From Ilumatobacteraceae bacterium (GTDB lineage Bacteria; Actinomycetota; Acidimicrobiia; Acidimicrobiales; Ilumatobacteraceae): a stretch of DNA of 64,000 nucleotides. A program made the translations under genes and the position numbers. Location of the stretch: positions 915-64,914 of the forward strand of contig JBPCJW010000142.1 in NCBI GenBank assembly GCA_051004915.1. The letters are read 5' to 3'. The notes beneath the pieces were generated by a model. It searched no databases. It worked only from the letters and a program-made list of their open reading frames with translations, and had not been told where the DNA came from. Shown here one piece after another: positions 16,109 through 57,880 of this stretch (positions are counted from its first letter, which is position 1; each line of letters starts with the position of its first letter).

Positions 16109-16237
16109 CGAGACCCGCCCAGTCCGAGGGCACTAGCAGGTTCTCATGTGCCCCCGGTGGATGACACATCCGAAGACGGCCGCTCCGCTACCTTCGCCTC
16201 GACCGGCCACCTCGGTCGGGCGGCAGAGGAAGGGTGG

Positions 16238-38945: not shown

Positions 38946-39149
38946 TCACGCTCCCGTCTCGTCGAGAGTGATGGCGTACTCCGGGCAGTTGGCCACGGCA
39001 AGCCGCGCCTTCTCCTCCAGCTCCGGCGTCACGGTGCCGTCGCCGATGACGACCGCCTGGCCGTAGTCGTCGACGTCGAACAGCTCGGGCGCCAGTGCGT
39101 AGCAGCGATTGTGCCCCTGGCACTTCTCCGCATCGACCCGCACCTGCAT
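38946..39149 (-). CDS. ferredoxin (small single-cluster type, P450 partner)
   Basis: MQVRVDAEKCQGHNRCYALAPELFDVDDYG...AVANCPEYAI. The C..H..C...CP pattern is typical of 3Fe-4S ferredoxins adjacent to actinobacterial P450s. Confidence 0.88.
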   Translation of the reverse strand: MQVRVDAEKCQGHNRCYALAPELFDVDDYGQAVVIGDGTVTPELEEKARLAVANCPEYAITLDETGA

Positions 39150-39213: not shown

Positions 39214-40302
39214 ATGGCCGACAGTTCGACGGCGTTCCTGCCCGTGGCCACCGACCGGCTGCGCATCCGCACCCTCGTGCCGGCCGACGCCGAGGCGTTC
39301 GCGGCCTATCGGTCCGACCCGGACGTGGCGCGCTACCAGAGCTGGTCGGCGCCATATCCGCTGGCGTCGGCGCGCCAGCTGATCGACGGCCAGCCGCAGC
39401 TCGATGGACCGACCGCCGGCGAGTGGGTGCAGTTGGCCATCGAGGCCGACGGCGTGCTGGTCGGTGACGTCGCCGTCGGGCTCAGCGGCGACGGTCACAC
39501 CGCAACGATCGGGTACACGCTCGTCCCTGCTCACCAGGGCAAGGGTCTGGCCACCGAGGCTGTCGCTGCGGTCGTCGACAGGCTGTTCGAGCACAGCGGC
39601 GTCCACCGTGTGGAGGCTTCCGTCGACCCGCGCAACATCGCCTCCGCTCGCATCGTCGAGCAGGTCGGGTTCGACTTCGAGGGAACGGCCGTGTCGTCGG
39701 TGCTGGCCGACGGGGAGTGGACCGACGACGACCGGTATGCGCTGACCGCTGATGCCCACGAGGCGTGGGGCCAGCGTGTCCGCACGGCAGTCAAGGAGGT
39801 GCACCTGCGCGAGGTCACGGCGGGCAACGCCCGAGCCCTGCTCGCTCTGCGCACCCATCGCACACAGCAGCGCTTCGTTGCCCCAATGGCGGCATCGTTC
39901 GCCAACGCCCTGGCTCCCGAGGTCGTCCATGGCGCGGCCCTGGTGCCGTGGCTGCGCGGCATCGAGGCCGACGGCGAGCTGGTCGGGTTCATGATGATCG
40001 CCGAAGGCACACCGACGTCTCCCGAGCCGCACCTCTGGCGGTTGCTGATCGACCGCCGACATCAGCGGCGGGGCATTGGCAGCGCGGCCCTGCGACTGCT
40101 CTTCGAACGCCTGCGCGCCGAGGGCCACTGGGCGCTGAACGTCAGCTGGGTTCCGGGTCCTGGCGGACCAGCACCCATGTACCTCGCGATGGGGTTCGTC
40201 CCGACCGGCGAGATCGACGAGGACGAGATCGTCGCCCGCCTCGACCTGCAGGGCTCGCACGGCTCGCATGGCTCGCAGGGCTCGCAGGGCTCGCAGGGCT
40301 GA
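39214..40302 (+). CDS. tandem GNAT N-acetyltransferase (two GNAT domains) with a (G-S-H/Q) repeat tail
   Basis: ATG 39214. Domain 1 is RimJ/RimL-like (RLRIRTLVPADAEAF..., HQGKGLATEAV, VDPRNIASARIVEQVGF). Domain 2 has LLIDRRHQRRGIGSAALRLL. The C-terminus is QGSHGSHGSQGSQGSQG. Confidence 0.8.
   Translation: MADSSTAFLPVATDRLRIRTLVPADAEAFAAYRSDPDVARYQSWSAPYPLASARQLIDGQPQLDGPTAGEWVQLAIEADGVLVGDVAVGLSGDGHTATIGYTLVPAHQGKGLATEAVAAVVDRLFEHSGVHRVEASVDPRNIASARIVEQVGFDFEGTAVSSVLADGEWTDDDRYALTADAHEAWGQRVRTAVKEVHLREVTAGNARALLALRTHRTQQRFVAPMAASFANALAPEVVHGAALVPWLRGIEADGELVGFMMIAEGTPTSPEPHLWRLLIDRRHQRRGIGSAALRLLFERLRAEGHWALNVSWVPGPGGPAPMYLAMGFVPTGEIDEDEIVARLDLQGSHGSHGSQGSQGSQG
40252..40299. repeat. 9-bp tandem repeat (ggctcgcaN) x5.3
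   Basis: ggctcgcac ggctcgcat ggctcgcag ggctcgcag ggctcgcag ggc, in frame at the 3' end of the GNAT-GNAT gene. Confidence 0.9.
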
Positions 40303-40310
40303 GGCTGCCC

Positions 40311-42338
40311 GTGGCTGAGGCCGGCCACCGCGCCGTCAACCTGTCCAACTGGGAGAGTCGGGTCGCCCACCACGTCGCGGGCTACGGCATCGACCGGCTC
40401 CTCGCCGACCCCGACGCCCTGTCCGCCGTGGTCGCCTTCGATCAGCCGCGCCTCGGCGACCTCCACGGCCTCGACGTGGTGCACCTGCAGTGCCACATCG
40501 GCACGGACACGATCTCGCTGGCCCGCCTCGGTGGGCGGGTCAGCGGGCTCGACTTCTCACCGTCGGCACTGACCGCGGCGCGCGACGTGGCTGCCCGGGC
40601 CGCCCTCGACGTCGAGTTCGTCGAGTCGGATGTCGACCACGCTGTCGACGCGCTCGGCCCCGAACGGTTCGACCTCGTATACACCGGCATCGGTGCGATC
40701 AACTGGCTGCCGTCGATCGCCCGCTGGGCCGACGTCGTCGTCCGGCTGCTGCGCCCCGGCGGGCGGCTGTTCATGCGCGAGGGCCACCCGATGATGCAGA
40801 CATTGAGCGATCCTCGGCCCGACGGCCTGCTGGTCATCGAGTACCCGTACTTCGAGACGGCGTCCGGCACGACGTTCCGCGAGGTCACGAGCTACGTCGA
40901 CCACGAGGGCGAGCTGGCTCAGCCCGAGACGATCGAGTTCAACCACGGCCTTGGCGAGGTCGTCACCGCGCTCCTCGATTCGGGGATGACGCTGACCCAG
41001 CTGGTCGAACACGACAGCGTCCCGTGGAACTCCCTGGGCGAGGCGATGATCGAGGGGGACGACGAGGAGTGGCGGCTGCTCGGAGGCGCAGAGCGGCTGC
41101 CGCTCTCGTACACGCTGCAGGCCGTGAAGACGCGCGGAGTGGGCGGCTCCGCCGCCATGTCGGTGGGCGGCTCCGCCGCCATGTCGGTGGGCGGCTCCGC
41201 CGCCATGTCGGTGGGCGGCCGACCTGACGACTCGCGCCCGCTGCGGACGGGGCCACAGCGGTCACGGTGGTCCCAATACGTTGGCGCGGTGGAGCTCGGG
41301 GCGGAGGTCGACCGGCGGTACGCGGCCCAGGTCGAGTACGGCGGGCGGGCCCGGGCCGTCCACTCCATCCAGCCCGTGGTCTCGGTCCTGGTCATCACGT
41401 ACCGGCACGCCGCGTTCATCCGCCAATGCCTCGACGGGATCCTCGCCCAGCGGACCGACTTCCCATTCGAGGTGGTCATCGGCGAGGACGGCAGCGACGA
41501 CGGCACCGCAGAGATCTGCGTGGAGTACGCCGACGCCCACCCGGCCACCATCCGTCTGTTCCCACGCGACCGTGCACTCACCCAGCTGCCACTTGACGAG
41601 GGAGCCATCGTCCCGATCAAGCGATTGAACGGCCGATTCACTCGCCTCGCCGCCCGCGCCGACGTGATCGCCTTCTGCGAGGGTGACGACCACTGGACCG
41701 ATCCCGAGAAGTTGCAGCGCCAGTACGACGTGTTGCGGCACGACCCGACCGTGTCGGTCGTCGTCCACGAGGCGGCCGTCGAATGGACGTCGGACGAGCC
41801 GCAACCGTGGCAGTACGCCCACGCCGTGTCGACCCGGTTGTCAACGGAGGACGTGATCTGGGACCCCGGCACTCCGACGTGCACCGTGATGATGCGCAAC
41901 TCCGGACTCGAGGACCCGCGGTTCCTCGAGTGGTCGTGCCGGACGCTCAGCGTCGACTACCTGACACGGGCGGTGGCCAGCTTCTACGGCGACACCTTCG
42001 TCATCGACCGGGAGATGGCGGTCCATCGCAAGCATCCCGGTGGGTTGAGTCAGTCGCCTGCCTACCGCGACCGGTTGCGTCTCGCCGAGAGCACGCGCAA
42101 CCTCTACCTCGGCATCCGTGATCTCAGCCCGCCCGACCGGCGGACGTTGACCAACCCCAAGCTGGCCGGCGTGACGGGGAAGCTGGCGCTCGCCGAGCTG
42201 CGCGCCCACCGGCTCAAGCCAGCCGGGCGTCACGCCGCCGAGGCTGTCGGGTTCGCCCTCGCCGCTCCCGGCGAGCTACTCCGTCAGCGGCGCAGGGTCT
42301 TGCGGCCGCTCGCCGACGCCGTCCGACCCACTGCCTGA
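40311..42338 (+). CDS. fusion protein: class I SAM-dependent methyltransferase (N) + repeat linker + family 2 glycosyltransferase (C)
   Basis: Single uninterrupted frame from GTG 40311. MT motif I: VVHLQCHIGTDTISLARLGGRVSGLDFSP. Linker: (GGSAAMSV)x3. GT2: VSVLVITYRHAAFIRQCLDGILAQ...VVIGEDGSDDGT...FCEGDDHW (DxD-like). The earlier part of track ORF 39765.. overlaps the GNAT gene and was rejected. Confidence 0.8.
   Translation: MAEAGHRAVNLSNWESRVAHHVAGYGIDRLLADPDALSAVVAFDQPRLGDLHGLDVVHLQCHIGTDTISLARLGGRVSGLDFSPSALTAARDVAARAALDVEFVESDVDHAVDALGPERFDLVYTGIGAINWLPSIARWADVVVRLLRPGGRLFMREGHPMMQTLSDPRPDGLLVIEYPYFETASGTTFREVTSYVDHEGELAQPETIEFNHGLGEVVTALLDSGMTLTQLVEHDSVPWNSLGEAMIEGDDEEWRLLGGAERLPLSYTLQAVKTRGVGGSAAMSVGGSAAMSVGGSAAMSVGGRPDDSRPLRTGPQRSRWSQYVGAVELGAEVDRRYAAQVEYGGRARAVHSIQPVVSVLVITYRHAAFIRQCLDGILAQRTDFPFEVVIGEDGSDDGTAEICVEYADAHPATIRLFPRDRALTQLPLDEGAIVPIKRLNGRFTRLAARADVIAFCEGDDHWTDPEKLQRQYDVLRHDPTVSVVVHEAAVEWTSDEPQPWQYAHAVSTRLSTEDVIWDPGTPTCTVMMRNSGLEDPRFLEWSCRTLSVDYLTRAVASFYGDTFVIDREMAVHRKHPGGLSQSPAYRDRLRLAESTRNLYLGIRDLSPPDRRTLTNPKLAGVTGKLALAELRAHRLKPAGRHAAEAVGFALAAPGELLRQRRRVLRPLADAVRPTA
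41139..41219. repeat. perfect 24-bp tandem repeat x3.4 (gtgggcggctccgccgccatgtcg)
   Basis: The three units at 41139-41162, 41163-41186 and 41187-41210 are identical, followed by a partial gtgggcggc. In frame, at the MT/GT2 domain junction. Confidence 0.95.
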
Positions 42339-42417
42339 CGACCGGCCCGCTTCGGCCACCGAGCCACTGACTGACAACCTGACCGCTTCGGCCCCCAACC
42401 GCAGCGCGGAGGCATCA

Positions 42418-43449
42418 TCAGGCCGGCCGTGTCCGGCCCAGCGAGCGGAGCGAGCCACCAGCACGGATCACGTCGATCGATTTGAGGGCGACGATGCCCG
42501 GGTCGATGGCGAACAGGTCGCCATCGACCGTTCGCCCGCCGGCCCACGCCACGTACGCCGCCGGCAGGTCGGCGCCGGCGAGGTGGGCGAACGGGTAGTT
42601 GCCGCCGATCCGCACGTTGAGATCGAGCACGGCCACGTCGTCGCCATGGACGAAGACGTCGACATCGAGTGCGCCGACGTGGCCGAGCTCGTCGGCCAAC
42701 GCACGGCCGGCGGCGTGCAGGCGGGGGGCGTCGACCGTCACGGCGGCGTCGGTCTCCCCCGCTCGCATGGCCAACTTGCGGTGGGCGAGCACGCATTGGA
42801 ACCGACCGGCGAAGTCGTTGACCACCGTCAGCCCGTGCTCGACGCCACGCACACCCTCTTGCACCACCACGTCGTCTGACCCACCCGGTTCGGCCAGGTA
42901 CGTGGAACGCAGGTCACGGTGCACCTTGCGGTGCAGCAGCTCGATCTCGTCGGCCTCGCTCGTCGACCACGTGGCGATCGAACCGGTCCCGCGCCGCGGC
43001 TTCACGAAGACCCGATCCGCTCCGGCCCCGAGCCATCCCGCAGCCTCCGCCGGATCGAGCGTCGTGCGCGGCGCGGTCAAACCCGCCCTGCGCGCGATGT
43101 CGACGGTGGCCAGCTTGTCCTGGCACAGCGCGATGACATCGGGGGCCGACACGGCGACGCGCACGCCGGCCGCCGCAAAACGACTGATGGCGCCGGCGAG
43201 CACCGGCAGCTCGAGGTCGAAGACCGGGACCACGAGAGCGATCTGCTCGCGCCGGCACACATCGAGCAGGAAGTCGATGTAGCCGTCGCTCGCCAGCGGC
43301 GGTGCGACGACCGCCAGGTCGGCGACCACCATGGCCGTCGCCTCGGCTTGGGAGTTGGTGGCGACCACCAACCCCTCTGGTGCCACGGCGTGGCGGAACC
43401 ACTCAACGAGGTACGAGCGCCGACCGGCGCACGTGATCAGCACGTTCAT
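42418..43449 (-). CDS. ATP-grasp domain ligase (carbamoyl-phosphate-synthase/PylC-like)
   Basis: MNVLITCAGRRSYLVEWF (pre-ATP-grasp start typical of this subfamily), VFVKPRRGTGS, VVQEGVRGVEHGL, LDLNVRIGGNYP (Mg/ATP site). Confidence 0.8.
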   Translation of the reverse strand: MNVLITCAGRRSYLVEWFRHAVAPEGLVVATNSQAEATAMVVADLAVVAPPLASDGYIDFLLDVCRREQIALVVPVFDLELPVLAGAISRFAAAGVRVAVSAPDVIALCQDKLATVDIARRAGLTAPRTTLDPAEAAGWLGAGADRVFVKPRRGTGSIATWSTSEADEIELLHRKVHRDLRSTYLAEPGGSDDVVVQEGVRGVEHGLTVVNDFAGRFQCVLAHRKLAMRAGETDAAVTVDAPRLHAAGRALADELGHVGALDVDVFVHGDDVAVLDLNVRIGGNYPFAHLAGADLPAAYVAWAGGRTVDGDLFAIDPGIVALKSIDVIRAGGSLRSLGRTRPA

Positions 43450-43481
43450 GGGATCACCCTGGCGACGATGCGCTCGCTCAT
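43446..43481 (-). CDS. micro-ORF 2 (11 codons, MSERIVARVIP), coding status unproven
   Basis: Its ATG overlaps the stop of micro-ORF 1 (ATGA), and its TGA overlaps the ATG of the ATP-grasp gene (ATGA). Confidence 0.15.
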   Translation of the reverse strand: MSERIVARVIP

Positions 43482-43591
43482 GTCAGCACCTCATCGTGGG
43501 CTGTAGCGCCGAGAAGGAGCGCACCAGGTACTCGGCCATGAGAGACAAGACCGTGCTGCTGATCCACTCGATCGAAGACTCCGTCGTTCAT
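43478..43591 (-). CDS. micro-ORF 1 (37 codons, MNDGVFDRVDQQHGLVSHGRVPGALLLGATAHDEVLT), coding status unproven
   Basis: Its ATG overlaps the aminotransferase stop (ATGA). By hand count, third-position G+C is about 20 of 37 codons, visibly lower than in neighbouring genes. Confidence 0.25.
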   Translation of the reverse strand: MNDGVFDRVDQQHGLVSHGRVPGALLLGATAHDEVLT

Positions 43592-44703
43592 GAGCCAAGA
43601 GCGTCGACGACGATCGAGACAACGAGATCGACCTGCCCGTCGGTCATCGTGTGGAACGAGGGCAGGCACAGGATGCGCGCCGCAACGTCGTCGGCGACCG
43701 CGAGCCGCACCGGCTGCACGTAGTTCAGCTCGTTGAGGCCGGGCGAGAAGTACCGGCGCGGCATGACGTCCCTGGCGACAAGGGCATCGTGGACCTGCTC
43801 GCGATGGCCGGTGTCCTCGAACAGCACGGGCACGTAGGCGCGGTTCGGGTCGGCGCCCTCCCGGTCGGACTGGAACGTCAACCGCCCCTGCCGGCACAGA
43901 CCGTCGAAGCCGGCGGCGTACAGCTCGTAGATCTCGCTGCGGCGAGCGAGCAGGGCGTCCAGGTGCGCCAGGTTGCACAGGCCCATCGCAGCGTGCAGCT
44001 CGGAGCCCTTGGCGTTGATCCCCACCCCGTCGAACCGCGTGAAGTCGACGTGCCCGAAGTTGCGCATCCGCCCCATCGATTCGCGCAGCCCCATCGACTC
44101 AGTGAACAGACCACCACCCTCCACGGTGTGGAACAGCTTGGTGGCGTGGAAGCTGCACGTCGTGACGTCGCCGTAGGAGAAGACCGAACGGCCGCCGTAC
44201 GACGTGGCGAAGCTGTGCGCGCCGTCGTAGATCAAGGCCAACCCGCGCTGCGCGGCGAGCGCGGCGAGCGCGTCGACGTCGCACGGCGTGCCGAAGACGT
44301 GGGTGGCCAAGATGGCAGACGTCCGCGGCGTGATCGCCGCGTCGACGGCCGCCGGGTCGAGCGAGAACGTGCCGGCCTCGATGTCGGCGAACACGGGAGT
44401 GCAGCCCTCCCACACGACTGCGCTCGTGGTCGCGACGTAGGAGAACGGCGTCGTCACCACGTCGCCGGCGACGCCGAGGGCCTTGATCGCCACCTGCAAC
44501 GCGACCGTGCCGTTGGCGACGAACAGCGGGACGGCGACGTCGAGCCGCGCCGCCAGCGCGGCCTCCAGCTCGTGGACCAGCGGCCCGTTGTTGGTCAGCC
44601 AGCAGCGTTCGTAGATGCCGTCCAGGTACGCGTCGTACTCCCGGCGGGGCGGGAGGAACGGCTGCGTGACGGGGATCACGGTGCGCCGCCGTCGACTCGC
44701 CAC
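43588..44703 (-). CDS. DegT/DnrJ/EryC1/StrS-family PLP-dependent (sugar) aminotransferase
   Basis: IPVTQPFLPPRREY, NGTVALQVAIKAL, YDGAHSF, CSFHATKLFHTVEGGG (PLP-Lys motif SFHxxK). Confidence 0.88.
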   Translation of the reverse strand: MASRRRRTVIPVTQPFLPPRREYDAYLDGIYERCWLTNNGPLVHELEAALAARLDVAVPLFVANGTVALQVAIKALGVAGDVVTTPFSYVATTSAVVWEGCTPVFADIEAGTFSLDPAAVDAAITPRTSAILATHVFGTPCDVDALAALAAQRGLALIYDGAHSFATSYGGRSVFSYGDVTTCSFHATKLFHTVEGGGLFTESMGLRESMGRMRNFGHVDFTRFDGVGINAKGSELHAAMGLCNLAHLDALLARRSEIYELYAAGFDGLCRQGRLTFQSDREGADPNRAYVPVLFEDTGHREQVHDALVARDVMPRRYFSPGLNELNYVQPVRLAVADDVAARILCLPSFHTMTDGQVDLVVSIVVDALGS

Positions 44704-44730
44704 TGGTGCTGGCCGACGGTGGTCGCCACG

Positions 44731-45909
44731 TCACATGCTCGGGATCTGGCGGGTGTCCACGACGAGCGGCGTCTTGTTCGTCGTCGGGCTGGTCACCAGC
44801 TCGTGCACCGTGACGAAGCGGACATCCCGTTCGACGGGTCCACCGGCGAGCACGTCGGTCAGGGCCTGGCGCTTCACATCCAGGTCGCCGGGCGCTGGGG
44901 CATCCGCCGGGACGACGAGCACGTCGACGCGGGTGCGTCGCTCGGCGTTCAGCGAGAGCTGGATCTGGAATGCCGTTGCACCGTCGACGACAGGGGCGAA
45001 GTCGCGCTCCGTCATCGACCGATGGTCGACGCGAAACGTGTATGCGCCGCGACCCTGCAGCTCGACGCACGGCTGGCCGTCCACCGTGACGAGGCGACCG
45101 CGATCACCGTTGCGGTAGCGCAGCACGGGAAACCGACGTTTGATCGTGTTGGTCACGACGATGTTGCCGATGCCGTCAGCGTCCGGGTCCTCGATCTCGA
45201 TGTGCACGATCTCGTGGACGATCCGGTACTGCGCCCCGTCCCGGCTGAGATCGCACCATCCCCACGAGCCGTTCTCCACGGATGCGTACACGCCGTAGAC
45301 CTGCTCGACGCCGAGTGCGCGGCGCAGCTCGTCCAGGTAGTCGGACGACATGACCTCGCCGCCGAAGGCGAGGCGCGGGATGCGCACGTCGAGTCCGTTG
45401 GCGCTGACGTAGGCGGCGAACTGGAACAGTCGCGACGGCGTGCCGACCGCCATGTCGGGCCCGAGGCGACGGCAGAAGTTGACGACGAACTCGTCCGGTG
45501 TGATCGCGCCGAGCCCGATCGACGTGGCGTCGCAGCGCTCCAGCAGGTCGTCGAAGATCGACGCCGACCGGTAGAGGTGCTTGTAGTTGAAGAGGTTGAC
45601 GGCGACCGTCGTCGGCGTGAAGATCCCGGCCGCCAGCAGGTGGTCGGCCATCGCCTGGCGCTGGCGGCGGTTCTCGTCGATGCCGAGCGGCACGAGCAAC
45701 GCCTCCGACAACGTGCCACCGGTACGCAGCAGGTACACGCCGGTCTGCTCGCGGCGCAGGTCGAAGTTGCGTTCGATCAGTGAGCGCAGCTCGGCCCGGC
45801 CGATGATCGGCACGTCGGCGAATTGCTCACACCCGTCGACGTGACCGGCGAGGAACGGTGACGAACGAACCTCGTGGAACAGCCACTCCAGCTCCTCCGG
45901 CGTGCTCAC
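44731..45909 (-). CDS. PaaK/CapK-like adenylate-forming enzyme (F390-synthetase family)
   Basis: 392 aa. LLRTGGTLSEA (degenerate TSGTTG P-loop), GGEVMSSDYLDELRR, VLRYRNGDRG (Y.TGD-type motif). GTG 45909 follows GAGGGTGG. The family call is from motif and size resemblance. Confidence 0.6.
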   Translation of the reverse strand: MSTPEELEWLFHEVRSSPFLAGHVDGCEQFADVPIIGRAELRSLIERNFDLRREQTGVYLLRTGGTLSEALLVPLGIDENRRQRQAMADHLLAAGIFTPTTVAVNLFNYKHLYRSASIFDDLLERCDATSIGLGAITPDEFVVNFCRRLGPDMAVGTPSRLFQFAAYVSANGLDVRIPRLAFGGEVMSSDYLDELRRALGVEQVYGVYASVENGSWGWCDLSRDGAQYRIVHEIVHIEIEDPDADGIGNIVVTNTIKRRFPVLRYRNGDRGRLVTVDGQPCVELQGRGAYTFRVDHRSMTERDFAPVVDGATAFQIQLSLNAERRTRVDVLVVPADAPAPGDLDVKRQALTDVLAGGPVERDVRFVTVHELVTSPTTNKTPLVVDTRQIPSM

Positions 45910-45970
45910 GGACCACCACCCTCAGGCCCCCGCCCCCGCCCATCCTGAGGCCCCGGCCGCCGCCCACCCG

Positions 45971-46077
45971 GCGCGATGAGGGATGAGTGGTCATACGACG
46001 CACATCGCTCATCGCTGGGCCGGGCTCCCGAGGGCGATGAGCGATGTGCGGCCAGACGGCACTCATCGCTCATCGCG
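45971..46077. repeat. structured palindromic repeat, family 1, copy 2
   Basis: Same architecture as 2231..2336. The outer arms are gcgcgatgagggatgagtgg and cactcatcgctcatcgcg. The inner perfect 10-bp stem, cgctcatcgc (46006-46015) with gcgatgagcg (46034-46043), again encloses an 18-nt loop, but the loop sequence differs. Confidence 0.9.
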
Positions 46078-46092
46078 TGGTGCGCTCACGGC

Positions 46093-47367
46093 TCATCGCG
46101 CTGGTTCGGTGGCGATCATCGTCGGGACCAGGACGGCGCGATCGCCGGCGACGTTGATCACCGACTCCGCCGACGCCCGGAACAGGCCGGGCCCGAAGGG
46201 CACCCCGTCGAAGCCGGGCAGCAGTCCGACGACATGCGCTGGCTGTTCGACCAGCTCGCCTGCATCCGTGAGCATCGGCATCGGCACGACGAGCTGTGGG
46301 ACGAACGCCTGCGCCGCCCGGTCGTCCGACTCGTGCTCGACGGCGTGGAGCCAGGTCGGCGGATCGCACGCCGCGCCGACCAGCAGGTCGATCCCCCGGC
46401 CCGAGCTGTTGCGCTTGAGCACCCAGTCAGCGGGCTCGGCGCGCAGCCGATCGGCGATCGAGGGGTCGCCGGCGTGGAACGTCGGGATGATGTGGTCCGA
46501 CAACACGTCGACCGAGGCGGGGTCGAGCAGGTCGGACATGATCGAGCGATCCCCCAGGACGGCGAGCATGCGCTTGTCGTGGCCGAGGATCAAGGTCCGC
46601 ACGTCGTTGAACGTGCGGTCGCAGGCCACAAGGGCCGCGAACAGATCGGGCGGCATCTCGAGCAGCTCGTCTCGCTCCAGCTCGAGGATGAACTGGGCGA
46701 CCGGCTCGCTCCCGTCGACGATCACGCCACGCTCGACGCGCAGCTGGTCCGGCCGGCGAGCTCGGGCGTCGATGCCGACACGGCGCAACTCGTCGACGAG
46801 GAGGAAGATCTCGTTGCCGCCCTCCCGGTCGAGGAGGACCACGAGCGGCCCCGGCTCGAAGCGCGACGCAAGGGCATCGATCGCCTGCCGCAGACCCACC
46901 ACGGCCCGCACCGCGGCACCGGTCAGGTAGCCAAGACCTTCGACCACTTCGTTGGTGTAGTAGCTGCACAGGAACCCGTTCGTGGGGAACCGGGCGTTGA
47001 CCTCGCAGACCTGGGCGACGCCGTCGACGTCGATCAGGAAGTCCGGGCGCAGCGCGCCGGTGCGATACGGGAGGCCATCGACTCGCTCGAGTAGCTCGAC
47101 GAGGGGGCCAGGCAGGGCCAGCACCCGGCGCAGCCGGCCGTCGGAGAGGTACCGCGCGATGACCCGCTCGATGCCGACGGCGATGGCGCGGTACAGACGG
47201 TCGAGGAGGGCGGCGTCGGGCGCGCCGAGGGTCAGCGGATACGGCGCGGTGCGATCGGCGTACCACCCCATCGACGGTGCGACCGAGCGCACCGCCTTGT
47301 CCAGCTCGGCCCGATCACGGCGGAAAGTGGCTGCGTCCGGCGGCCACACCGGCACCGTCGGGCGCAT
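46093..47367 (-). CDS. hypothetical ligase, possibly ATP-grasp / glutathionylspermidine-synthase-like
   Basis: ATG 47367 lies 7 nt after the upstream stop. RPDFLIDVDGVAQVCEVNARFPTNGF and WVLKRNSSGRGIDLLVG resemble nucleotide-binding strands of GspS-like or circularly permuted ATP-grasp enzymes. Coding confidence is high, function confidence low. Confidence 0.45.
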   Translation of the reverse strand: MRPTVPVWPPDAATFRRDRAELDKAVRSVAPSMGWYADRTAPYPLTLGAPDAALLDRLYRAIAVGIERVIARYLSDGRLRRVLALPGPLVELLERVDGLPYRTGALRPDFLIDVDGVAQVCEVNARFPTNGFLCSYYTNEVVEGLGYLTGAAVRAVVGLRQAIDALASRFEPGPLVVLLDREGGNEIFLLVDELRRVGIDARARRPDQLRVERGVIVDGSEPVAQFILELERDELLEMPPDLFAALVACDRTFNDVRTLILGHDKRMLAVLGDRSIMSDLLDPASVDVLSDHIIPTFHAGDPSIADRLRAEPADWVLKRNSSGRGIDLLVGAACDPPTWLHAVEHESDDRAAQAFVPQLVVPMPMLTDAGELVEQPAHVVGLLPGFDGVPFGPGLFRASAESVINVAGDRAVLVPTMIATEPAR

Positions 47368-47374
47368 CGGGGCG

Positions 47375-48226
47375 TTACACCATCTGGACGGCGCGGGCAC
47401 CGAGACCGGCGCGATCGAGCTGGTCGACGATCGACTGCATGGCGGCCGTCTTGTGCTCGAGGTAGGTCGCCACGGTGGAGCGCACGGCGCCGGCATCGAG
47501 TGTTCGGCCGGCACCGACGAGGTACGCCTCGATGGCGTCGACGGCATGACGGAAGTGATCCAGCTCGGTGCCGTCGCAGTGCACCTCGATCCACAGCAGT
47601 GCCCTGCGCCGATCGACATCGGACCAGCCACGCGCGATCAACCAGTCGTTGAACAGTGGCCGCAGCAGCTCGACCTCGGCGTGGGTGTAGATCTCGTGGA
47701 CGACCGTGGCCAGGATGCCGGTCAACAGGTCGTCCTCGACCAGGTTGCAACGGTCCTTCCACTGCTTGAACGCGGCCGCCTCCGGCGTGAGGTAGCGCTT
47801 CGATTGCCACTCGTCGCCGCCGCTCAGCGTGGTCGCCATCGCATAGAAGAGGTCGGCGTGCAGCAGGCCGTTGCCGACGCCGAGGTCCTCGTCGCAGATC
47901 CGGTGCAGGCTGACGAGCGAGCGGACCAGTGCGGCGGGGTCAGCCACTGCGCCGTCACGTAGCTGCAGAGTGATCCGGTTGCCGAGCCCGGACACGCACA
48001 TCGCGCTGTGGTTGGTCATGCTCCACGAACGGAAGTACCAGCGCAGGCCCTCGTCACCCGGCGACAGCTCGATGACCTGGCGGAACGCGTCCTCGATCGT
48101 CTCCAGCGAGTGGTGCGCCGACGGCGTCGAGATGGCGTCGGTCAGCGCGCGGCGCAAAACAGCGTCAACGACGTCATCCAGCTCGACGCTGATGAGCTGC
48201 TGCAACTGAGGTTCCACCGTCCGCAT
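47375..48226 (-). CDS. hypothetical protein, possibly a heme-oxygenase-like (TenA/PqqC/HDO fold) iron enzyme
   Basis: 283 aa and predicted all-helical by composition. Candidate metal ligand motifs are VVHEIYTHAEVE and EVHCDGTELDHFRH (H-x4-E-x2-H, close to the H-x3-D-x2-H of HDO/CADD-type proteins). Function is speculative. Confidence 0.4.
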   Translation of the reverse strand: MRTVEPQLQQLISVELDDVVDAVLRRALTDAISTPSAHHSLETIEDAFRQVIELSPGDEGLRWYFRSWSMTNHSAMCVSGLGNRITLQLRDGAVADPAALVRSLVSLHRICDEDLGVGNGLLHADLFYAMATTLSGGDEWQSKRYLTPEAAAFKQWKDRCNLVEDDLLTGILATVVHEIYTHAEVELLRPLFNDWLIARGWSDVDRRRALLWIEVHCDGTELDHFRHAVDAIEAYLVGAGRTLDAGAVRSTVATYLEHKTAAMQSIVDQLDRAGLGARAVQMV

Positions 48227-48441
48227 GCTGTCCTTTCGAGTTTTGGTCTGGCCGTTCGGAGCTCTTGGCGAGGTGCCGCCTCTCCGGCCGCGCTGGTCAG
48301 CTCGCTCGATCGATCGGGTTGTCTACCACAATCGAACGGCGAAACGGTGGAACCCCAGGTCAGCTTCGTCCCTCCCGTTGGAGCGCAGCCCGGCGGCGCC
48401 GGCGTGGCTGTCTCGGGGTCCGTCTCCGCGAGGATCGGGTC

Positions 48442-50286
48442 GTGATCTCGACCGGCGGCGGCGCACGCACGCTCTTCGGCGCCACCGCCGCGCTGCGCCA
48501 GCTGCTCGACCGTCGGACGCAGCGACGGCTGGTCCTGTGCGTCGTCGCATCGGTCGGGATCGCGCTCATCGAGATCGCCGGGCTGGTGGTCATCATCCCC
48601 CTTTTGACGATCCTCGCCGAGGGCAGCCTGCCCACACAGGGCGTGTCGGCCGAGATCGTCGGGTGGACGGGATCGAGCGACCCGGACACGGTCGTGCTGA
48701 TCCTCACGGCCGTCGCCTTCGGGTGCTTCGCGCTGCGTGCTGCGTCGACGCTCGTCGTGCGCTGGTGGATCTTCGGGCGGATCTTCGAAGACGAGGCGCG
48801 CACCTCGGCCCGGCTGCTGCGTCGTTTCCTGTCCGCGCCGTACGTCTTCCACCTGCGCACCAACTCGACCCAGCTCCTGCGCACGCTGACGTTGAGCGTC
48901 GACCAGACCTACAGCCGGGTGATCATCGGGCTGATCACGATCGCCGTCGAGCTGGTGGTCGCGGTGGGCACGGCGGTCGTGCTGGCGATCAGTGAACCGC
49001 TGGCGGCGCTCGCCCTGGTGGTGTACTTCGCGGTGGCGACCCTCGCCATCGCCCGCGCCGTGTCGGCCCGCAGCCGGCGCGTCGGGCTGCGCTTCCAGCA
49101 GCACAACGCCGAGGTGCTGAAGGAGGCGACCCAGGCCTTCGGAGCGTTCAAGCACATCCAGCTCGGCGGGCACGAGGACCACTTCGTGGCCCGCTTGGAG
49201 GAGGTCCGCCGGCAGTCGTCGGACACCAAGCGCAAGATCCAGTTTCTCGCCGAGGTGCCGAGGCAGTACTTCGAGCTGGCCTTCGTCGTCGGGATCGGCC
49301 TGATGATCATGATCGTCTCGGTGCTCCAGGGCTCGTCGTCGGTCGTCGCCGCCATCGGCTTGTTCGCCGTCGCCGGGTTCCGTCTGCTCCCCGGGCTGGT
49401 GCGCATCTCCAACAGCAACCAGAACATGCAGAGCGCGCTGCCGGCGCTGCAGCTCGTGCTCGATGCGTTGGCGCTGCCGGCGATGCCGGCCGACCCGGTG
49501 TCGATCGATCCGGCCGACGTGTTCACCGAGCAGTTGCGGGTGCACGATGTCTCGTTTCGCTACCCGGAGACCGAGGTCGACGCCCTGCGCGACATCGACC
49601 TGGAGGTCGCTCCCGGCGACTCCGTCGCGCTGGTCGGCCCGTCGGGCGCCGGGAAGAGCACGTTGATCGACGTGATCATCGGCCTCCACCCGCCGACCAG
49701 CGGTGAGGTGCTGATCGACGGCCGGCCGGCCGGCGACATCCGCACTGCGTGGCAGCGCGGCATCGGGTTGGTCCCGCAGGACATCTTCCTGCTCGACGCC
49801 ACGATCGCCGAGAACATCGCCTTCGGTGACCGCCTCGACGAGATCGACAAGGCGCAGTTGGACGAGACCGTCGCCATGGCCCAGCTCGACGACCTGGTCG
49901 CCGAGCTGCCGGCGGGACTGCAAACGATCGTCGGCGAACGGGGCGTGCGGCTGTCCGGCGGCCAACGCCAACGGCTCGGCATCGCCAGGGCGCTGTACGG
50001 CCGGCCCCGCCTGCTGGTGCTGGACGAGGCGACCTCGGCGCTCGACTCGGTGACCGAGGCGCGGATCACCGGGACGCTGCGTGGGCTGCGCGGCCGCCTG
50101 ACGATGATCACGATCGCCCATCGCCTGTCAACGGTGCGCGCCGCCGACCGGCTGGTGCTGATGGACGAGGGGCGGATCATCGACACAGGTCCGTTCGAGC
50201 AGCTGCGCGACCGCAACACGTCGTTCCGCCACCTCGTCGAGGTCGCCGAGATGACCTCGTCCCTCCGAACCGACACCAACGGCTGA
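48442..50286 (+). CDS. ABC exporter, fused permease-ATPase (MsbA/type IV half-transporter)
   Basis: GTG 48442. Six-TM N-terminal domain, Walker A GPSGAGKST, signature LSGGQRQR, Walker B LLVLDEATSALD. Confidence 0.9.
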   Translation: MISTGGGARTLFGATAALRQLLDRRTQRRLVLCVVASVGIALIEIAGLVVIIPLLTILAEGSLPTQGVSAEIVGWTGSSDPDTVVLILTAVAFGCFALRAASTLVVRWWIFGRIFEDEARTSARLLRRFLSAPYVFHLRTNSTQLLRTLTLSVDQTYSRVIIGLITIAVELVVAVGTAVVLAISEPLAALALVVYFAVATLAIARAVSARSRRVGLRFQQHNAEVLKEATQAFGAFKHIQLGGHEDHFVARLEEVRRQSSDTKRKIQFLAEVPRQYFELAFVVGIGLMIMIVSVLQGSSSVVAAIGLFAVAGFRLLPGLVRISNSNQNMQSALPALQLVLDALALPAMPADPVSIDPADVFTEQLRVHDVSFRYPETEVDALRDIDLEVAPGDSVALVGPSGAGKSTLIDVIIGLHPPTSGEVLIDGRPAGDIRTAWQRGIGLVPQDIFLLDATIAENIAFGDRLDEIDKAQLDETVAMAQLDDLVAELPAGLQTIVGERGVRLSGGQRQRLGIARALYGRPRLLVLDEATSALDSVTEARITGTLRGLRGRLTMITIAHRLSTVRAADRLVLMDEGRIIDTGPFEQLRDRNTSFRHLVEVAEMTSSLRTDTNG

Positions 50287-50341: not shown

Positions 50342-52495
50342 GTGAGCCACCGGTACCTGTGGACGCCACTTGCGCTCGGCCCGGTGATGACGCGCAACCG
50401 GATCGTGTTCTCGGCGCACCTCACGAACTACGCCCGAGACGGCCTCCCGACCGAGCAGCACGCCGCCTACTACGAGGCGCGGGCGGCGGGCGGGACGGGC
50501 TTGATCGTGACCGAGGAGCACTCGACGCACCCCACCGACTGGCCCTACGAGAAGCTGATCCACGGGTTCCACCGCGACGTCATCCCCGGCTATCGGCGGA
50601 TCACGGAGGCCGTGCACCGCCACGGCGTCCCGATCTTCGCCCAGATCAACCACAACGGTGGGCAGGCGTCGTCGATGTACACCCGCCTGCCGGTCTGGGC
50701 GCCTTCGGCCGTCGCCGACCCGTTGTTCCGGGAGGTCCCGAAGGCGGTCACGCAGGCCGAGATCGACGAGATCGTCGCCGGCTACGCGCTCGTCGCCGAG
50801 CACTGCGCCGAAGGCGGCTTCGACGGCATCGAGCTGCAGTGCAGCCACTCGTCCATCGTGCGTGGCTTCCTGTCGCTGTCGACCAACCGCCGCACCGACG
50901 GGTACGGCGGCAGCCTCGAGCACCGAGTTCGGCTGCTGCACGAGATCGTCGCCGCCGTGCGCCGCGTGATCGGCCATCGCCTGGCCCTCGGCGTTCGGCT
51001 GTGCGGGGACGAGCTGATCGACGGCGGGACGACGATCGGCGAGGCCGTCGAGGTCGCCCGGATGATCGAGGCGAAGGGTCAGGTGGACTACATCAACACG
51101 TCGATCGGTGTGGCCACCGCCACGCTGTACATGATCGAGGCGTCGATGCACGTGCCTCCCGGGTACGCGCTGTTCATCCCCTCTGCGATCCGGGAAGCCG
51201 TCGACCTGCCGGTGGTCGGCGTCGGCCGTTTCAAGGACCCGCTGCAGGCCGAGCGGGCGCTGGCGGAGGGCCATTGCGACCTCGTCGGCGTCGTCCGCGG
51301 CCAGATCGCCGACGCCGACTTCGCGGCCAAAGCGAGGGCCGGGGCGACCGAGGAGATCCGCCTCTGCCTGTCCTGCAACCAAGAGTGCGTCGGCCGGATG
51401 GGGCTCAACCGCTGGCTCGGCTGCATCGAGAACCCGACCACCGGCAAGGAATCCCGGTCTGTCCGCAGCCCCATGGGGGCTGCGGACCCAGGGGGCCCCA
51501 TCCCCGTGCGGCTCGCTGGCGCTGGCGCGCCCGGGCGTCCGCTTCGCGTCCGCAGCAACCAACTCACAACGGCAGGATCGTCCGGACAGAACGATGTGCT
51601 GGTCGTCGGGGCGGGCCCGGGGGGTTTGCAGGCGGCGATCAGCGCGGCGCGCCACGGTCACCGGGTGACGGTGTGGGAGCGCAACGCGCAACCCGGGGGG
51701 CAGGTGCGCCTGGCGGCGCTGGTCCCCAACCGCGCCGAGCTCGGCGACATGATCCGCAACCAGGTCAGCGAGTGTCGGCGGTTGGGCGTGCGCATCGAGT
51801 GCGGCGTCAAGGCGACGGTGGAGCGGATCCGAGGTCACGCCCCGAGCCACGTGATCGTCGCCACCGGGGCGATCCCCGCTCGCCCGTGGTGGATCGGTGG
51901 TGAGGTGACCAACGCCTGCGACGTGTGCGACGTGCTGGCCGGTACGGCCACGCCGACGGGACGCGTCGCGGTGATCGACGAGCTCGGCTTCCACCAGGCC
52001 ACGTCGGTCGCGGAGCTGCTGGCCGATCGTGGCTGTTCGGTCGAGATCATCACGCCGGGGATGGTCGTCGGCCAAGACCTCGGCATCACCCTCGACCTCG
52101 AGCAGTGGTGGATGCGAGCGATGGCCAAGGGCATCGTGCAGTCGACCGATCTCGTGCCGATGGGATTCGACGGCATCACCCTGACGCTGCTCCACCACCC
52201 GACCGGCGAGAACGAGGAGCGCACACCCGACTGGGTCGTCTTGGCTGTGCCAGCGATCCCCGCCGACGACCTGTACCACGAGCTGCGGGCGGCGGGGATC
52301 TCCGTCGACCGGGTCGGCGACTGCGTCGCGCCTCGCCGCGCCCACGCCGCGGTCGTCGAGGGCGAGCGAGCCGGCACCGATGTGCCATCGCGCCCGGCTC
52401 CGCCCGACGCCGCGCCCGTGCAGACGTCTGCCACCAGAACCCGCTTGGCGTTCCGGCGCCGCCGACCATCGCCGGACGCCGAACTCGTCGGATGA
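50342..52495 (+). CDS. NADPH-dependent 2,4-dienoyl-CoA reductase-like flavoprotein (OYE domain + 4Fe-4S + FAD/NAD domain)
   Basis: LTNYARDGL...AYYEARAAGGTGLIVTE, INHNGGQ, GFDGIELQCSHSSIV, CLSCNQEC (Fe-S), VLVVGAGPGGLQAA, and a second Rossmann fold. Confidence 0.88.
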   Translation: MSHRYLWTPLALGPVMTRNRIVFSAHLTNYARDGLPTEQHAAYYEARAAGGTGLIVTEEHSTHPTDWPYEKLIHGFHRDVIPGYRRITEAVHRHGVPIFAQINHNGGQASSMYTRLPVWAPSAVADPLFREVPKAVTQAEIDEIVAGYALVAEHCAEGGFDGIELQCSHSSIVRGFLSLSTNRRTDGYGGSLEHRVRLLHEIVAAVRRVIGHRLALGVRLCGDELIDGGTTIGEAVEVARMIEAKGQVDYINTSIGVATATLYMIEASMHVPPGYALFIPSAIREAVDLPVVGVGRFKDPLQAERALAEGHCDLVGVVRGQIADADFAAKARAGATEEIRLCLSCNQECVGRMGLNRWLGCIENPTTGKESRSVRSPMGAADPGGPIPVRLAGAGAPGRPLRVRSNQLTTAGSSGQNDVLVVGAGPGGLQAAISAARHGHRVTVWERNAQPGGQVRLAALVPNRAELGDMIRNQVSECRRLGVRIECGVKATVERIRGHAPSHVIVATGAIPARPWWIGGEVTNACDVCDVLAGTATPTGRVAVIDELGFHQATSVAELLADRGCSVEIITPGMVVGQDLGITLDLEQWWMRAMAKGIVQSTDLVPMGFDGITLTLLHHPTGENEERTPDWVVLAVPAIPADDLYHELRAAGISVDRVGDCVAPRRAHAAVVEGERAGTDVPSRPAPPDAAPVQTSATRTRLAFRRRRPSPDAELVG
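51461..51556 (+). other. 87-bp in-frame insertion bounded by 9-bp direct repeats GTCCGCAGC within the reductase gene
   Basis: gtccgcagc occurs at 51461-51469 and 51548-51556, exactly 87 nt apart. The insertion opens with the hairpin gtccgcagcccc-at-gggggctgcggac (12-bp stem). Confidence 0.7.
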
Positions 52496-57205: not shown

Positions 57206-57880
57206 GTGCGCCTGACGGACCAGACGTGGCCGGACACCGCGGCTGCGTGCCCGGTCGTGGGCGTGCCGGTCGGATCCTGCGAGCAGCACGGCCCACACCT
57301 GCCGCTCGGCACGGACACCGTCATCGCCGAGGCACTCGTCGGGCGCCTGGCGGCCCTGCGCCCCTCGATCGTCATCGGCCCGACCTTGACGGTGACGGCC
57401 AGTGGCGAGCACGCCGGCTTCGCCGGCACGTTGTCCATCGGGAGCGACGTGCTGTCCTCGATGATCGTCGAGCTCGTCCGCTCGGCCGACTGGTCCGGCG
57501 GCGTCGTCCTCGTCAACGGGCACGGCGGGAACCGTGAGGCGGTCGATCGGGCCGTCGCCGTGCTGCGCTCGGAACGCCGGCCCGTGCTGGCGTGGTGGCC
57601 GTCGCTGGCCGGCGGCGATGCCCATGCCGGCCGCACCGAGACGTCGATCATGCTGACCCTGCGACCGGACCTCGTGCGCCAGGACCGCGCCGTCGTCGGC
57701 GAGACCGCTCCGCTCCCCCAGTTGATGGGCCGGCTGCGCGCCGGCGGCGTGGCCGTGGTCGAACGGTCCGGCGTGCTCGGCGACCCCACTGGCGCCACTC
57801 GAGCAGAGGGCGAGACCATCCTGCGCCGACTGACCGACGACCTCGTCGCCGCGTTCGACCGCTGGAACGCCGGCCGGTGA
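57206..57880 (+). CDS. creatininase-family amidohydrolase (mycofactocin peptidase MftE-like)
   Basis: VVGVPVGSCEQHGPHLPLGTD, SGEHAGFAGTLS, VLVNGHGGN and DAHAGRTETS are the creatinine amidohydrolase metal-ligand pattern. It is directly coupled (GTGA) to an MftF-like GT2. Confidence 0.75.
   Translation: MRLTDQTWPDTAAACPVVGVPVGSCEQHGPHLPLGTDTVIAEALVGRLAALRPSIVIGPTLTVTASGEHAGFAGTLSIGSDVLSSMIVELVRSADWSGGVVLVNGHGGNREAVDRAVAVLRSERRPVLAWWPSLAGGDAHAGRTETSIMLTLRPDLVRQDRAVVGETAPLPQLMGRLRAGGVAVVERSGVLGDPTGATRAEGETILRRLTDDLVAAFDRWNAGR

Follow-up and report, generated by a model that had tools for sequence, protein, structure and literature searches.

The window analyzed here is a 64-kb stretch of DNA from an uncultured soil actinobacterium of the family Ilumatobacteraceae. 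It carries a block of seven genes, which encode an ATP-binding cassette (ABC) exporter, a putative heme-oxygenase-like di-iron oxidase (HDO), three predicted carboxylate-activating enzymes, an aminotransferase and a glycosyltransferase fusion (Table 1). For identification of coding regions, we applied a frame analysis based on the G+C content at third codon positions (GC3). The analysis picked exactly the seven open reading frames (ORFs) that a preliminary description of this DNA had named, all of them in coding frame and with GC3 values of 0.86-0.92. Their positions and families were confirmed by these frames, by Pfam and NCBIfam, by homology to PDB sequences and by Foldseek. Window proteins are 100% identical to proteins of an Ilumatobacteraceae metagenome-assembled genome (MAG), in which they are labelled "hypothetical proteins". 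The G+C content of the window is about 70% and shows no break at the cluster.

Table 1. Genes of the cluster in the window. aa, amino acids; TMD, transmembrane domain; NBD, nucleotide-binding domain; PLP, pyridoxal phosphate; SAM, S-adenosylmethionine; GT2, glycosyltransferase family 2.
Feature	Position	Strand	Remarks
MsbA/PglK-type ABC half-transporter (TMD-NBD)	48442..50286	+	divergent from the biosynthetic operon; Pfam ABC_membrane and ABC_tran
Heme-oxygenase-like (HDO-type) putative di-iron oxidase, 283 aa	47375..48226	-	first gene of the operon; fold match
Cp1B/AnkG-family (GshB/GspS-like) ATP-grasp amide ligase, 424 aa	46093..47367	-	homology to PDB 9cjn
PaaK-family ANL adenylating enzyme, predicted amide-bond synthetase	44731..45909	-	fold and motifs
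DegT/DesI-like PLP aminotransferase, predicted amine-generating	43588..44703	-	Pfam DegT
PylC-like / PRK12767 "carbamoyl-phosphate-synthase-like" ATP-grasp, third ligase	42418..43449	-	PylC-like_N
Soluble class-I SAM methyltransferase-GT2 fusion	40311..42338	+	convergent with the operon; one continuous ORF
Tandem-GNAT acyltransferase, probable lineage-specific accessory	39229..40302	+	two GNAT domains (Pfam)

The junctions within the five-gene operon had been described as very tight. This is true of two of the four, which measure 7 nt (HDO to Cp1B-like gene) and 27-51 nt (ANL to DegT), and not of the other two, which measure 183 nt (Cp1B-like gene to ANL) and 138 nt (DegT to PylC-like gene). 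The 183-nt gap exists because a dispersed palindromic repeat was inserted there. According to alignment of orthologues, the start of the ABC gene is probably near 48484 instead of 48442 and that of the DegT gene possibly near 44679 instead of 44703. We scanned essentially all coding ORFs of the window against Pfam and detected no nonribosomal peptide synthetase (NRPS) or polyketide synthase (PKS), no nucleoside diphosphate (NDP)-sugar synthase or dehydratase, no Wzx/Wzy and no priming transferase, in agreement with the preliminary description. A promoter and terminator scan gave nothing beyond shuffle expectation, Rfam had no match anywhere in the window, and PADLOC returned generic methyltransferase and ABC-ATPase domain matches only and no known defence system.

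The ATP-grasp ligase encoded by the second gene of the operon gave no match to Pfam or NCBIfam in the scans of the window proteins. Against the PDB, it matched one solved structure, 9cjn ("Ligase Cp1B"), with an E-value of 4.9e-19 over two aligned stretches. In the recently solved fungal pathway to the protease inhibitor E-64, Cp1B acts as the ATP-grasp enzyme: it activates trans-epoxysuccinate by phosphorylation and links it to an L-amino acid (PMC12568646). Four of its residues, R139, D141, E163 and N165, were found to be essential by mutagenesis (PMC12568646). Their aligned counterparts in the window protein are R107, D109, E122 and N124 (RPD...EVN), and the catalytic Arg, Asp and Glu are invariant in the bacterial family (72/72 sequences). 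All Cp1B-like homologues carry the precomputed domain AnkG_N (PF28486), a new Pfam family which owes its name to the related fungal NK13650 ligase. The occurrence of Cp1B-like and Cp1D-like proteins "in a few bacteria" was mentioned in the E-64 study (PMC12568646).

The protein encoded by the first operon gene matched nothing in Pfam or NCBIfam at E <= 0.01, and carries no Pfam signature of the superfamily such as Haem_oxygenas_2. Searches of the PDB sequences with phmmer and with a profile of its family gave no HDO match, and hhalign detected no similarity between the family and the characterized HDO MboA (probability 0.1%). The profile found 150 representative clusters among 1.84 billion proteins at E <= 0.001. 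An AlphaFold2 (AF2) model made from 24 homologues has a mean local confidence (pLDDT) of 90.8 and a predicted TM-score (pTM) of 0.89. Its best Foldseek matches are UndA, a TenA homologue, CADD, BesC, HrmI, PolF and RohS, with a probability of 1.00 and TM-scores of about 0.55-0.62. According to the model, the protein has the heme-oxygenase-like helical-bundle fold of the HDOs.

The residues D112, E113, H123, H177, E178, H182, E184, E186, H216, E221 and H224 are kept in 77-79 of 79 sequences of the HDO family. The canonical HDO site consists of three His and three carboxylates, which are E86, H89, E143, H172, D176 and H181 in MboA (PMC13185094). Judged from the conserved pattern and not from a residue alignment to a known HDO, the set of E113, H123, E178/E184/E186, H216, E221 and H224 is compatible with such a site. 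HDOs commonly bind the carboxylate of their substrate and are paired with ATP-grasp ligases (PMC13185094). As the window family carries no superfamily Pfam signature, it may have escaped the survey in that study; a motif search in the truncated, line-wrapped supplementary sequence lists gave no match (PMC13185094). Four remoter members of the family (P0158, P0166, P0142 and P0155) are fused to an FCD domain, the ligand-binding domain of GntR-type regulators, and one carries TIR and FCD domains. These fusions hint at a sensing or defence-related offshoot.

Sequence matches of the ANL enzyme are weak and fall on AMP-binding and PaaK entries of Pfam and NCBIfam. Since its NCBIfam PaaK scores lie far under the cut-off, it is not a phenylacetate-coenzyme A (CoA) ligase equivalog. 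The best Foldseek matches of its AF2 model (pLDDT 88) are BT_0428 (E 7e-24), PaaK1 (8e-23), ClxA, NatL2 and AjiA1, in a range from 1e-24 to 1e-19. Three of these neighbours in fold space, NatL2, AjiA1 and ClxA, are CoA-independent ligases which form esters or amides. An S/T-G-G-S/T motif, E185, E212 (A5), D269 (A7) and R287 (A8) are invariant, K379 (A10) is present in 68 of 69 sequences and replaced by Arg in one, and the P-loop lacks the customary Lys. On the modelled structure, the enzyme is a PaaK-type two-domain protein with intact adenylation motifs.

The closest relative of the aminotransferase is DesI (PDB 2po3, 5.6e-56). It matches Pfam DegT at 1.2e-80 and NCBIfam PLP_DesI at 258 bits, which is under the cut-off, and its translation shows the lysine motif SFHATK. 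The third ligase matches PylC-like_N (5e-21) and ATP-grasp_3, scores 291 bits for PRK12767.1-3 against a cut-off of 316, and matches PDB 2pn1 (5.8e-34). The succession of the DegT gene and the PylC-like gene is kept in the loci of Acidimicrobiia.

In the fusion protein, Methyltransf_12/25/11 matches lie at aa 56-155 and Glycos_transf_2 at aa 355-492, and no transmembrane segment was predicted in it. The GT2 domain is 64-77% identical in the related loci L001, L006, L011, L012 and L014-L016, and the methyltransferase domain is limited to the window and L011. The stop of the upstream GNAT gene lies 8 nt ahead of the start of the fusion gene, and its orthologue in L001 overlaps the GT2 gene by 4 nt and is translationally coupled to it. 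A GNAT orthologue is also found in L011 and is absent from the L006/L014-L016 lineage. Therefore the GNAT gene, which had been regarded as an unrelated neighbour, probably belongs to the operon of the methyltransferase-GT2 gene and is not a housekeeping gene. The ABC exporter has at least four hydrophobic segments. Its best NCBIfam match is MsbA_lipidA (319 bits), followed by HepA, a glucan exporter and PglK, all far under the cut-offs and typical of any type-IV exporter. In the Acidimicrobiia loci L001, L006 and L011-L016, an orthologue with 72-82% identity diverges from the operon in the same way.

Conservation of the neighbourhood had been set beforehand as a test of the block, and the result was positive. 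We scanned one genome per species (185,579 species) and found relatives of the HDO in 159 species. An earlier estimate of about 30 proteins, obtained by word-indexed homology searches, was discarded as a sensitivity artefact. Gene neighbourhoods were counted in the best 80 loci, 73 of which are not cut by a contig end and are called complete here. The HDO gene adjoins a Cp1B-like gene in 69 of the 73 complete loci, and in all homologue-bearing contigs that were first examined the two genes are adjacent and co-directional. An ANL gene is present in 67 complete loci, and 61 have a soluble GT2 gene between the Cp1B-like and ANL genes; the full cassette of HDO, Cp1B-like, GT2 and ANL genes was found in 59. 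No other gene family is conserved across the loci, which come from at least six phyla. The evolutionary core is HDO, Cp1B-like ligase and ANL enzyme, with or without GT2, in about 160 species.

Cassettes were found in Flavobacterium, Tenacibaculum, Pedobacter, Mucilaginibacter and Fluviicola, in Sphingomonas, Azospirillum/Nitrospirillum and Chromobacterium, and in Lysobacteraceae, Glaciecola, an Archangiaceae MAG, Thermoanaerobaculia and Acidimicrobiia. Cultured strains with the four-gene cassette include Chromobacterium haemolyticum DSM 19808 (L039), Pedobacter sp. D749 (L093) and Flavobacterium flavipigmentatum F-70 (L052). The GT2 of the cassette is a soluble protein of about 306 aa, whose best NCBIfam match is MftF with 66 bits against a cut-off of 280. 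The GT2 of the window was considered as its orthologue and rejected, as a hidden Markov model linked the two at an E-value of only 1e-7 and over the N-terminal 110 aa or so (Rossmann part). With five loci of the window type added to the 61 of the cassette type, a GT2 gene occurs in 66 of the complete loci. A literature description of the bacterial cassette was not found; searches for AnkG with ATP-grasp and for HDO with ATP-grasp and glycosyltransferase gave only the E-64 and mangotoxin papers.

The full block, as it stands in the window, was found in Acidimicrobiia. In L001/L012, L006, L011 and L014-L016 the order is the same as in the window: a divergent ABC gene, then HDO, Cp1B-like, ANL, in part an HTTM-like gene, DegT and PylC-like genes, and a convergent GT2 gene. 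L013 ends at a contig edge just past the Cp1B-like gene. The HTTM-like gene, which encodes a protein of about 500 aa with seven transmembrane segments and weak HTTM (vitamin-K carboxylase-like) similarity, lies between ANL and DegT in most Acidimicrobiia versions (L001 13789-15276; L006 13294-14802) and is absent from the window and from L015. The seven-gene block recurs in at least six species genomes of Acidimicrobiia under at least two distinct sets of flanking genes. This bears out the proposal of a self-contained biosynthetic module. The view of the seven genes as one module holds within Acidimicrobiia, where the block is kept, and does not hold beyond, as the block is not indivisible. 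The DegT aminotransferase, the PylC-like ligase, the exporter and the methyltransferase domain are lineage-specific additions to the core.

Several variants are informative about the function of the core. A 1.25-Mb contig (GCA_037189345.1; L008, 8743-14301) carries genes for a Cp1B-like ligase, an ANL enzyme, a TauD-family oxygenase, a PylC-like ATP-grasp enzyme and an Orn/Arg decarboxylase; but for one extra ligase, its content is essentially that of an E-64 cluster. The TauD gene beside the Cp1B-like and ANL genes indicates that the oxygenase slot is interchangeable. This set lies directly upstream of PqqD, ScmC-like and NTP_transf_5 genes. Additional genes in the Thermoanaerobaculia loci L002 and L005 encode a PLP decarboxylase of group II, a Ddl-like ligase and peptidases of the M13 and Mx types. 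A conserved protein of 402 aa without a family match is encoded there as well and, like the peptidases, might serve processing or self-protection. A glycosyltransferase of family 4 (GT4) and a PIG-L deacetylase are added in L004. In L009 the Cp1B-like and ANL genes are part of a polysaccharide locus (GT4, Bac_transf, PglD-like, DegT, MBOAT and Poly_export), which also encodes a flavoprotein, a GNAT and a lyase of the fumarase family. A natural DegT-HDO fusion of 670 aa (P0096; L091, 1113-3125) is encoded on a contig with 70% G+C. A Cp1B-like gene and a GT2 gene of the window type come next, and genes for GT4, WbqC, Bac_transf and a sulfotransferase lie in the same locus. The DegT half of the fusion shares 39% identity with the orthologue of the window DegT. 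The fusion ties DegT functionally to the HDO. With the decarboxylase in Thermoanaerobaculia, GT4 and PIG-L in L004 and DegT in the window, each elaborated variant brings an amine-making enzyme.

The closest described system is the E-64 pathway. There, an Fe/alpha-ketoglutarate (alpha-KG) oxygenase (Cp1A/MfaA) makes trans-epoxysuccinate, and Cp1D, an ANL-family amide-bond synthetase, couples the product of Cp1B to an amine (PMC12568646). The amine can be supplied by a PLP decarboxylase, which is optional in the published cassette; clusters are known as cp1/cp2 in fungi and mfa in cyanobacteria (PMC12568646). The accessions listed there for Cp1D and MfaD are XP_041142155.1 and MBD2130327.1. Cp1B and Cp1D were shown biochemically to make pseudopeptides of a dicarboxylate, an amino acid and an amine (PMC12568646). 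The window shares with this pathway a Cp1B-family ATP-grasp ligase, by true sequence homology and with the catalytic Arg, Asp and Glu kept. An ANL ligase, likened to Cp1D by family and position, a putative O2-dependent iron oxygenase and a predicted amine-supplying PLP enzyme complete the likeness, and the proposed logic of acid, amino acid and amine without an NRPS is the same. The statement of the preliminary description that the block has no recognisable product class was therefore too strong, since a Cp1B homologue with conserved catalytic residues, an adjacent ANL enzyme and an oxygenase correspond to the three-gene logic of E-64 (PMC12568646). However, an HDO-like protein takes the place of the oxygenase here and no alpha-KG oxygenase is present in the window. 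The PLP enzyme is a DegT sugar-type aminotransferase instead of a decarboxylase. The window adds a PylC-like ligase, the methyltransferase-GT2 fusion, the GNAT and the ABC exporter, and the GT2 of the conserved bacterial cassette has no counterpart in E-64 clusters. By its oxygenase and its PLP enzyme, the cluster is not a member of the E-64 clusters, and it adds a GT2.

Peptide clusters with an HDO and ATP-grasp ligases are a described class, for example the mangotoxin cluster mbo (PMC13185094). In mbo, too, an HDO gene lies next to stand-alone ATP-dependent ligases which build a short peptide (PMC13185094). The C-terminal carboxylate of the substrate serves for binding to that HDO, and the cluster yields a small bioactive compound (PMC13185094). 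In contrast to mbo, the HDO of the window has no sequence similarity to MboA, the ligases are Cp1B/GshB-like and PaaK-like and not Ddl-like L-amino-acid ligases, an MboB-type reductase partner is missing and a glycosyltransferase is present. The dapdiamide (DdaG/DdaF) and cystargolide (CysC/CysD) pathways, as cited in the E-64 study, resemble the cluster in that one adenylating amide-bond synthetase and one ATP-grasp enzyme act in succession on a small acid without an NRPS (PMC12568646). As far as they are covered there, these clusters use other enzyme families and have no HDO, GT2 or sugar aminotransferase.

From these data, we consider it on balance probable that the block, as a self-contained biosynthetic gene cluster, makes an exported glyco-pseudopeptide of low molecular weight without an NRPS and has a core that works like the E-64 pathway. 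This reading is carried by the homology of the ligases with their conserved catalytic residues, the HDO fold with invariant His, Glu and Asp residues and the co-conservation of the genes. What the enzymes act on, in which order they work, that an amino sugar is the nucleophile and what kind of product results are inferred from these. The Cp1B-family ATP-grasp enzyme would phosphorylate a small carboxylic acid, possibly a dicarboxylate, and join it to the amine of an amino acid. The HDO would oxidatively tailor either the building block or the product with its free carboxylate. The PaaK-family ANL enzyme would adenylate the resulting carboxylate and couple it to an amine. In the lineage of the window this amine would most likely be an amino sugar, made by the DesI-like DegT enzyme from an NDP-4-keto-6-deoxyhexose of primary metabolism. 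The PylC-like ATP-grasp enzyme may add one more amide-linked unit, and the soluble methyltransferase-GT2 fusion, probably with the tandem GNAT, may methylate, glycosyl-transfer and acylate the product, which the divergent ABC transporter would export. Stepwise amide assembly by three carboxylate-activating enzymes, as suggested in the preliminary description, is still the best reading. The biosynthetic enzymes of the cluster are all predicted to be soluble and a dedicated exporter is present. Together with the autonomous cassette loci elsewhere, this favours a small molecule over a polymer.

Several observations weigh against this proposal. The fourth catalytic residue of Cp1B is an Asn in the window lineage but a Gly in 61 of 72 family members. 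Since the HDO has no detectable sequence similarity to characterized HDOs, its metal binding is deduced from motif and fold only. The window holds no NDP-sugar 4,6-dehydratase, so the substrate of DegT is assumed to be supplied from elsewhere. Two junctions of the operon exceed 130 nt, and co-transcription is a prediction from gene order. Product, substrates and activities of all bacterial members of the cassette are predictions. Finally, L009 and L091 lie inside polysaccharide-type loci (Bac_transf, Poly_export), which favours glycan decoration for at least some members.

The last point leads to the strongest of the alternatives, an accessory module that decorates an envelope glycan. Amino sugars that are N-acylated with amino-acyl groups occur in O-antigens, and in O-antigen, capsule and antibiotic-sugar pathways N-acyl amino sugars are made by a DesI-type aminotransferase followed by N-acylation. 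In such a module, the ligases would N-acylate a DegT-made NDP-amino sugar with an oxidised acyl-amino-acid side chain. The GT2 would transfer this sugar to a polymer, lipid-linked or of the wall, with its core pathway encoded at another place, and flipping of the lipid-linked intermediate would fall to the MsbA/PglK-like ABC protein. The combination of carboxylate-activating enzymes and GT2 with a DegT enzyme closest to DesI and other NDP-sugar aminotransferases fits this scheme, as do the frequency of GT2 genes in the complete loci, the glycan-type clusters around the Cp1B-like and ANL genes of L009 and around the DegT-HDO fusion of L091, and the list of best exporter matches. However, the exporter matches do not discriminate between type-IV exporters, acylation would be by enzymes of the Cp1B, PaaK and PylC types and not by acyltransferases, and both GT2 types are soluble and lack the transmembrane helices of polyprenyl-phosphate or synthase-type GT2s. 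Hallmarks of surface glycan synthesis that are present in L009 and L091 (a priming polyprenyl-phosphate transferase, Wzx/Wzy or ABC-2 export, an NDP-sugar synthase or dehydratase) are absent from the 64-kb window, as is a polymerase. Outside the Acidimicrobiia lineage, no priming transferase (Bac_transf), DegT or panel-type GT4 was detectable within 10 kb in any of the 80 HDO-family loci, and the cassette of Pedobacter stands alone between an AraC regulator gene and short-chain dehydrogenase/reductase (SDR) genes. Envelope decoration appears fairly unlikely for the window.

The product could also be a small metabolite that stays in the cell, for example a redox buffer, a cofactor or a compatible solute, made by a mycothiol-like logic in which a glycoside is converted to an amine, ligated and capped by a GNAT; exporter and mycofactocin neighbours would then reflect redox physiology. 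We regard this as improbable. The four-gene cassette usually has no exporter or regulator of its own, and L004 pairs it with GT4 and a PIG-L deacetylase, which is the pattern of MshA/MshB or BshA/BshB. The window has a tandem GNAT, which is the architecture of MshD. The cluster also adjoins a mycofactocin-system old yellow enzyme (OYE), with MftE and MftF 7 kb away, and the cassette GT2 has MftF as its best match. Yet that similarity is far under the cut-off, the mycofactocin adjacency is confined to one lineage, a cysteine-ligase signature is lacking and the exporter is always present in the Acidimicrobiia variant. Moreover, the distribution is sparse and patchy (about 159 of 185,579 species) and the flanks differ from case to case, which agrees better with an accessory trait that moves horizontally than with core physiology. 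That the genes are chance neighbours or have unrelated single functions without a shared pathway, to which the 138- and 183-nt gaps might point and on which the promoter and terminator scan is silent either way, is almost certainly wrong and effectively already refuted by the conservation of gene order under different flanks in Acidimicrobiia and of the core across phyla, by the DegT-HDO fusion and by the repeat insertion that explains the 183-nt gap.

Beyond the glyco-pseudopeptide proposal itself, a bolder version of it is possible, if somewhat doubtful. The 283-aa protein would found a new, sequence-isolated family of heme-oxygenase-like metallo-oxidases with a reaction new for HDOs, acting on an N-acyl amino acid or amino sugar, for example by warhead formation or by N-oxygenation to a hydroxamate. 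Glycosylated pseudopeptides of a new class, such as bacterial covalent protease inhibitors or metal chelators, would be the products of the widespread cassette, and the Ilumatobacteraceae cluster would be its amino-sugar-extended, exported version.

Gene clusters that consist of stand-alone ligases only are easily missed by standard detection rules. The E-64 pathway was unsolved for about four decades, and its authors suggest that NRPS-independent amide formation may be the cause (PMC12568646). The present analysis links an anonymous actinobacterial block to E-64-type logic and delimits a compact cassette of four genes, as yet uncharacterised, that is shared by about 160 species. It also brings to light a family of HDO-like proteins that lacks annotation and a bacterial branch of the Cp1B/AnkG family of ATP-grasp enzymes, a family whose fungal members are useful biocatalysts for amide synthesis. 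Strains of Pedobacter, Flavobacterium, Tenacibaculum, Sphingomonas and Chromobacterium are among the hosts and are easy to culture, so that the chemistry can be tested directly. If the product bears an electrophilic or metal-binding group, it would represent a new natural-product scaffold. The cluster is a solid lead for genome mining and not a categorically new system.

Among the genes flanking the cluster are the housekeeping genes sdh, mdh, purH, sucCD and pcrA, two two-component systems, electron-transfer flavoprotein (ETF)/FixABCX genes and a ROK gene. It is only in the sub-lineage of the window that the GNAT gene, a ferredoxin-P450 pair and the FadH-like gene are found beside the block. 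The FadH-like and P450 genes were considered as cluster members and rejected, because neither lies beside the cluster in other lineages; for these two, the earlier view of unrelated neighbours stands. The ferredoxin gene (70 aa, about 38949-39149, minus strand) lies between the P450 and GNAT genes and is 91% identical to its orthologue in L001. From its position, the P450 gene starts near 38946 and not 39001, and the GNAT gene near 39229 and not 39109.

The right flank is related to mycofactocin. The FadH-like gene (50342-52495) scores above the NCBIfam cut-off for "mycofactocin system FadH/OYE oxidoreductase 2". Equivalogs of MftE (57206-57880) and MftF (about 57900-59208) follow 5-7 kb beyond it, with FixABCX-like ETF genes between. 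This mycofactocin glycosyltransferase MftF is the additional GT2 of the window; mftA, mftB, mftC and mftD were not seen in the window. Upstream, among housekeeping genes, two large membrane acyltransferases of the AT3 family are encoded (16148-18601 and 20586-23276), one of which has a fused SGNH domain. Such a pair is typical of O-acylation of glycans or peptidoglycan and has no conservation link to the cluster.

The spacer between the Cp1B-like and ANL genes is filled by a nested palindromic repeat of two units (GCGATGAGCGATG-N17-CATCGCTCATCGC; 45965-46085). A second copy with about 80% identity lies 44 kb away (2215-2345), and a 12-mer of the repeat occurs 7 times against 1.1 expected. The predicted RNA fold of the 183-nt spacer has an energy of -107.6 kcal/mol (z -2.8). 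The repeat looks like a dispersed element of the repetitive extragenic palindrome (REP) or miniature inverted-repeat transposable element (MITE) type.

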